Shown here one piece after another: positions 34,697 through 35,343 of a stretch of 64,000 nt of DNA (within the stretch, counting starts at the first letter, position 1; each line of letters starts with the position of its first letter). A model generated the notes under the pieces. It had not been told where the DNA came from. It made no database searches and saw only the letters and a list, made by a program, of their open reading frames with translations. The position numbers and the translations under genes were made by a program. The stretch lies in NCBI RefSeq assembly GCF_003334335.1, contig NZ_QOWQ01000002.1; one strand, given 5' to 3'. Source of the DNA: Escherichia coli. GTDB taxonomy: Bacteria > Pseudomonadota > Gammaproteobacteria > Enterobacterales > Enterobacteriaceae.

Positions 34697-34963
34697 ATGG
34701 AATGGCTGGTCAAAAAATCGTGCTGCAATAAACAAGATAACAGACATGTACTTATGCTCTGCGATGCTGGCGGCGCGATAAAAATGATCGCCGAAGTGAA
34801 GAGTGACTTCGCCGTGAAAGTGGGGGATTTACTCTCGCCTTTGCAGAATGCGCTTTATTGTATTAATCGTGAAAAGCTGCATACGGTGAAAGTCCTCTCG
34901 GCAAGCAGTTATAGCCCCGATGAGTGGGAACGGCAGTGTAAAGTGGCAGGGAAAACTCAGTAA
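34697..34963 (+). CDS. pmrD: Signal-transduction connector protein PmrD
   Basis: 88 aa from [13 protein letters not shown]; track extends 10 codons upstream. Confidence 0.85.
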
Positions 34964-35343
34964 CGTTGTTTTGTCGTGGGCAGGAAAATCAGCATCAACC
35001 CGCTCATAATACAGGCTACTCCCAGTAGTGCTTTCAGCGAAAAAGTCCCTTCCCAGCCGGGAAGTACCATTGAAGCAATCCATACCAGCACATAACTCAT
35101 ACTGAGCAAGGCATAGGCTTTGCTTAGCGCAAGTTTATGAAGCGTTTTATACCAACAAAAAACGGAAAGCAGATAACCCAGCAGCCCGAGTAACAGTATC
35201 CGGGCATCCAGGCCAAAAGCTAACAGAGCCGCGATAAAATCCCATAAGTGCGTCATCGGCGGCAGATGACTCGCCGCAAAACCCAGGCTTAATTGCGCAA
35301 CTGAGGCAATAATGACGCTGAATAATCCCCACATCAGGCCCAT
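34957..35343 (-). CDS. arnF: Undecaprenyl-phosphate-L-Ara4N flippase subunit ArnF
   Basis: 128-aa membrane protein from [10 protein letters not shown]; the 222-aa track ORF fuses it in-frame with upstream sequence; start overlaps arnE stop (TAATG). Confidence 0.85.

Follow-up and report, generated by a model that had tools for sequence, protein, structure and literature searches.

In the window, the whole 64-kb stretch of Escherichia coli DNA that was analysed, pmrD and arnF lie on opposite strands and converge on each other. The pmrD coding sequence occupies 34697-34963 on the plus strand (88 aa), with its ATG at 34697 and a TAA stop at 34961-34963. The arnF coding sequence occupies 34957-35343 on the minus strand (128 aa), starts with an ATG at 35343-35341 and ends with a TGA that reads as TCA on the plus strand (34957-34959). 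The two frames share seven base pairs, TCAGTAA, at 34957-34963 on both strands. As pmrD ends with ACT-CAG-TAA and arnF with CGT-TAC-TGA, each stop codon falls within the last sense codons of the partner. The sequence-only reading had described the pair as convergent genes whose 3' ends share 7 bp, and this description is borne out by the sequence, the list of open reading frames and the RefSeq annotation, which agree on both genes.

pmrD is a small regulator gene and arnF is the last gene of arnBCADTEF, the operon for the aminoarabinose modification of lipid A. The local gene order is menE (33232-34587, plus strand), pmrD, arnF, arnE (35343-35678, minus strand) and arnT (35675-37327, minus strand). 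The TAA stop codon of arnE shares base 35343 with the ATG of arnF (TAATG), which shows that translation of arnF belongs to that of the operon, and arnT and arnE have 4 bp in common (35675-35678). Both junctions are typical of translational coupling within the arn operon.

The two proteins were compared with curated NCBIfam equivalog models. PmrD matches NF011994 with 175 bits (cut-off 96), residues 1-85 of 88 being covered, and ArnF matches NF002816 with 140 bits (cut-off 99), residues 4-122 of 128 being covered. Because both models end before the overlap, the shared bases are confined to the unconserved C-terminal tails of PmrD and ArnF. In PmrD, residues 83-88 differ from one species to another, and the crystal structure resolves them poorly (PMC4263063). 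What lies at the locus is a tail-to-tail overlap of two genuine genes on opposite strands, with each stop codon inside the partner's frame. The identical 7-bp overlap is annotated by RefSeq/PGAP in all nine E. coli records inspected, which take in the most divergent strains sampled (about 5% divergent over the locus). The locus itself was found in 5405 of 5426 complete E. coli genomes, and an 841-nt query across the overlap was 100% identical to K-12-type chromosomes, which makes the window K-12-like.

Among the eight convergent junctions in the window, arnF/pmrD is the sole overlap, the gaps at the remaining ones ranging from 38 to 272 bp. Genome-wide, 58 convergent overlaps between coding sequences have been counted in E. 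coli; a rho-independent terminator was found for only about 20% of the genes in them, and such overlaps fit a model of stop codon mutation (Lillo and Krakauer 2007, PMC2174442). The arnF/pmrD junction resembles this generic class in being short, confined to the 3' ends and, like most of its members, devoid of a rho-independent terminator; its only special feature is that both genes belong to one regulatory circuit. As a class, the overlap is not statistically unusual. It is an ordinary tail-to-tail overlap of an annotated and already known kind.

To follow the junction across taxa, a profile search was run with a PmrD alignment against one genome per species, and the ends of both genes were then computed at the loci recovered. 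The taxon sample is small, with 10 loci. The 7-bp overlap is common to E. coli, an Escherichia-like contig (L004) and E. albertii. In the latter the shared bases read TCAGTAG, the pmrD stop codon having changed from TAA to TAG; this is the sole change within the seven bases and it is synonymous in arnF (CGT to CGC). Salmonella enterica and S. enterica subsp. diarizonae have a 6-bp overlap with back-to-back stop codons (TCATGA), and the four genomes of the Citrobacter amalonaticus group have no overlap, their gaps being +3, +3, +3 and +9 bp. In the alignment, the indels fall exactly at the arnF/pmrD junction. From these comparisons the tail-to-tail arrangement without a spacer is old and common to Escherichia, Salmonella and Citrobacter. 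The exact offset is lineage-specific, as would be expected from stop codons drifting in dispensable tails, and the offsets of -7, -6, +3 and +9 bp fit the model of stop codon mutation (PMC2174442).

The neighbourhood of pmrD differs elsewhere. The PmrD gene of Klebsiella aerogenes (L016 1501-1740) and a related metagenomic homologue (L015 630-881) lie directly upstream of amn (AMP nucleosidase) and not beside the arn operon, so that the arnF/pmrD junction is no universal property of pmrD. This 79-aa homologue of PmrD is named "histidine kinase" in several public records. In two further Escherichia genomes, pmrD has survived while little of the arn operon remains; these are Escherichia sp. MOD1-EC7003 and one recorded as E. 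coli SCPM-O-B-8794 (L005 3264-3620 and L006 3254-3330). In both, pmrD is followed by a 3' remnant of arnF and then by ais. The remnant is about 90 codons long in L005, where it is fused to a fragment of arnT, and about 22 codons long in L006, where a 10-bp deletion at the junction abolishes the arnF stop codon and the PmrD C-terminus becomes ...KSANNVVLQ (90 aa). In S. enterica subsp. arizonae CCUG 6322T (L012 3256-3626), arnF is seemingly frameshifted, with a 114-aa open reading frame and homology spread over three frames; either a pseudogene or an error in sequencing might account for this.

Termination signals and RNA structure were then searched for around the overlap. A consensus scan of the region returned five terminator-like sites where 1.7 were expected, and none of them lies at 34900-35040 on either strand. 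No Rfam covariance model matched at an E-value up to 1 between 33000 and 37500 on both strands. Folds of 86 nt across the junction did not exceed those of shuffled sequence in stability (z-scores +0.36 and +0.20), and larger folds around it gave z-scores of about -1. The sole inverted repeat at the junction is AAAAC...GTTTT with an 11-nt loop; a bidirectional intrinsic terminator, with a G+C-rich hairpin between an A-tract and a T-tract, was not found there. The absence of room for a terminator between the genes, and the antisense nature of any read-through with respect to the partner, had also been proposed from the sequence alone. Both points stand, as there is no intergenic space and neither an intrinsic terminator nor a significant hairpin at the stop codons or just past them. 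Without a spacer and without an intrinsic terminator, each full-length mRNA must reach into the partner gene, and termination inside the partner would make 3'-complementary arn and pmrD mRNAs unavoidable when both are transcribed.

One of the sites returned by the scan lies inside arnF on the minus strand, at 35064-35049, about 90 nt before the arnF stop codon, where CTTCCCGGCTGGGAAG is followed by GGACTTTTTC. Its stem has six pairs, a 4-nt spacer separates it from the T-run, and the fold has a z-score of 0.02. The stem is not kept in Citrobacter or Salmonella and is specific to Escherichia. In view of the weak fold and of the lack of conservation outside Escherichia, the site was rejected as a terminator and is probably a chance match.

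The RNA downstream of each stop codon is C-rich and G-poor, as is looked for in Rho-dependent terminators. The C/G ratio is 1.5-1.8 in the 150-200 nt or so past each stop codon, which is roughly in the top 5-10% of 78-nt windows (within the 64-kb window the median is 1.00 and the 90th percentile 1.53). In the pmrD read-through RNA, the stretch with more C than G extends over 34977-35119 on the plus strand and is antisense to the 3' part of arnF; in the arn read-through RNA, it extends over 34749-34956 on the minus strand and is antisense to the 3' two-thirds of pmrD. Both stretches are candidate Rho-loading regions, and from this composition we infer that both transcripts are terminated within the partner gene, probably by Rho. 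Neither pmrD nor arnF is named in the accessible portion of the supplements of Adams et al. (2021), a study that mapped E. coli 3' ends, and no Term-seq report on pmrD was found in the literature search.

Sequence diversity at the junction was analysed at two depths. When K-12 was aligned with six divergent strains of E. coli, only 2 of the 183 columns at 34945-35127 were polymorphic, whereas the locus as a whole averages 7.2 polymorphic columns per 100 nt. Four segments of equal length (183 nt) were also compared over 5418 genomes, scoring the share of genomes that are at least 99% identical to K-12. This share is 89% for the junction with the 3' part of arnF, 35% for the 5' half of arnF, 61% for the 3' part of pmrD and 67% for arnE. 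The junction with the 3' part of arnF is the least variable of the four segments within E. coli. Between E. coli and E. albertii, the junction segment is 20.8% divergent and its flanks are 18-22% divergent; a long-term extra constraint on the junction was rejected on this ground. Because divergence between the species is normal, we do not take the dip within E. coli as a sign of a functional element that is conserved. It is more simply explained by local genealogy, for example by a sweep or a recombination block. The dip is nevertheless the single observation that tilts towards a functional reading, and it could hint at an extra constraint.

The overlap of the two transcripts is already published at the catalogue level. 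With ExcludonFinder, arnF-pmrD was listed as one of 165 convergent excludons detected in 50% or more of 58 MG1655 transcriptomes, and it was singled out as a same-pathway pair (Sanmartin et al., NAR 2025, PMC12288877). Since the coding sequences already overlap, transcript ends defined by coverage must overlap too, and the listing is weak evidence for regulation. Overlap of this kind is also widespread: 276 of 370 convergent operons of E. coli (75%) have overlapping 3' transcripts, with a mean overlap of 286 nt (Conway et al. 2014, PMC4161252). As in the convergent excludons from which the concept was drawn in Listeria and S. aureus, arnF and pmrD are neighbours on opposite strands with overlapping transcript 3' ends. 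They differ in that the coding sequences themselves overlap and not the untranslated regions alone, and any inverse expression, dsRNA formation or processing by RNase III at arnF-pmrD would be hypothetical. In the typical case of that catalogue, the terminators lie within the 3' untranslated region of the neighbour (146 of 165, predicted with TransTermHP; PMC12288877), whereas arnF-pmrD has no convincing intrinsic terminator.

Two regulatory systems are useful for comparison. In Salmonella, PmrA-P represses the transcription of pmrD in a negative feedback (Kato et al. 2003, as relayed in PMC3140997 and PMC2565834), and according to Chen et al. 2011 E. coli lacks this loop (PMC3140997). The feedback has the logical sign proposed for arnF/pmrD, in that activation of the PmrA regulon, including arn, lowers pmrD expression; the Salmonella mechanism acts on pmrD transcription, unlike antisense pairing or polymerase collision coming from the 3' end. 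The second system is the convergent pair mscL-arfA of E. coli, for which an overlap of the 3' transcripts is reported to couple the expression of two stress-related genes (PMC10070815). The regulatory effect at mscL-arfA reportedly has experimental support, while one at arnF-pmrD would be hypothetical. Like arnF-pmrD, mscL-arfA is on the excludon list (PMC12288877).

Taken together, the junction is probably an ordinary tail-to-tail overlap of coding sequences, in which the stop codons drift in short tails, the transcripts end inside the partner gene, and any effect on expression is a modest by-product. pmrD abuts the 3' end of the arn operon without a spacer, an arrangement that Escherichia, Salmonella and Citrobacter share. 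With both stop codons in short unconserved C-terminal tails, shifts of a few bases in each lineage would have produced the different offsets. Termination would take place inside the partner gene, most likely by Rho acting on the C-rich untranslated read-through RNA, and the arn and pmrD mRNAs would be 3'-complementary whenever both are made. An effect on expression, through collision of RNA polymerases or cleavage of the duplex by RNase III, would probably be a modest by-product. Its sign would be that of the known negative feedback from PmrA to pmrD, and nothing suggests a selected regulatory device. One point against the by-product explanation is the persistence of a tight junction across three genera, which is compatible with selection for the convergent arrangement.

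Three other explanations were weighed against this ordinary overlap. An annotation artefact, with a stop codon or a frame miscalled and genes that do not truly overlap, might come to mind given the small size of the two genes (88 and 128 aa) and the frequent mis-annotation of genes for small membrane proteins. It is hardly credible here: both products match their equivalog models far above the cut-offs over nearly their full length, the frames reach the stops given above with no alternative in-frame stop, the ends are kept in E. albertii with a stop codon change that leaves ArnF intact, and Salmonella has an independent 6-bp overlap. The second explanation is that a terminator hidden in a coding sequence stops transcription before the overlap, so that little or no antisense RNA is made. 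The candidate would be the hairpin inside arnF, at which most arn transcription would stop short of the arnF 3' end, and the excess of terminator-like sites over expectation is in its favour. We consider this very improbable, given the short stem, its distance from the T-run, the near-zero z-score and the loss of the stem in Citrobacter and Salmonella. A stop at this position would moreover cost arnF its last 30 or so codons and with them a conserved portion of the family model, and no comparable plus-strand site was found downstream of the pmrD stop codon.

The third explanation is that the pair acts as a convergent excludon: strong transcription of arnBCADTEF driven by PmrA would run into pmrD and lower its expression by collision, by RNase III or by both, pmrD would do likewise to arnF, and the result would be a negative feedback in cis within the PhoP-PmrD-PmrA circuit. 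The antisense overlap is unavoidable from the geometry, the pair is a listed core excludon of a single pathway, and the arrangement without a spacer is conserved in three genera. The sign agrees with the repression of pmrD by PmrA in Salmonella, the dip in diversity within E. coli falls at the junction, and mscL-arfA offers a working precedent of antisense crosstalk in E. coli (PMC10070815). However, no locus-specific experiment, whether on antisense or on collision effects at the arnF/pmrD junction, was found in the literature searched, and the RNA-seq call is nearly automatic for overlapping coding sequences. Between E. coli and E. albertii, the junction has also changed no more slowly than the sequence on either side, the Salmonella feedback is described as a repression of pmrD transcription through a loop that E. 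coli reportedly lacks, and the transcripts of three quarters of convergent operons overlap with no known function. On balance, we find a functional excludon unlikely. A negative coupling between pmrD and arn expression, which the sequence-only reading had raised as a possibility for the last arn gene, would be plausible in its sign, and no computed result supports it. The stronger claim, that the junction is a selected cis-antisense feedback in which arn transcription damps pmrD and pmrD damps arnF independently of PmrA at the pmrD promoter, seems to us unlikely as well.

As matters stand, the arnF/pmrD overlap is correctly described and amounts to routine annotation. If a cis-antisense feedback did operate, it would shape the dynamics of the induction of polymyxin resistance. 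A physical damping of pmrD by arn transcription would add one more layer of feedback to a well-studied circuit and would provide a natural test case for whether catalogued excludons act.

The region upstream of pmrD was also inspected. The menE-pmrD intergenic region (34588-34696, plus strand) contains the pmrD promoter and 5' untranslated region. No other segment of the locus is as polymorphic across seven E. coli strains: 21 of its 109 columns vary (19%), compared with 4-9% in the flanking genes. Neither a PmrA box nor a PhoP box was matched within two mismatches in the pmrD upstream region. A direct repeat resembling a PmrA box, CTTAAGGTTAAGTTAAT, is present upstream of arnB in the divergent arnB-ais region (42406-42422, minus strand), with one mismatch to YTTAAK-N5-YTTAAK; more matches with two mismatches lie at 43024-43051, within the ais coding region.

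In E. coli O80:H26 EC-107 (L003 657-1354), the menE-pmrD interval carries an IS1A insertion, which lies some 60 bp upstream of the start codon of pmrD and so in its promoter region. Truncated forms of PmrD (49-69 aa) make up many clusters in E. coli-derived data, some of them on dozens of contigs; a 63-aa form occurs on 72 contigs, and a 69-aa form has 116 member sequences. These clusters suggest that pmrD is recurrently disrupted within E. coli.
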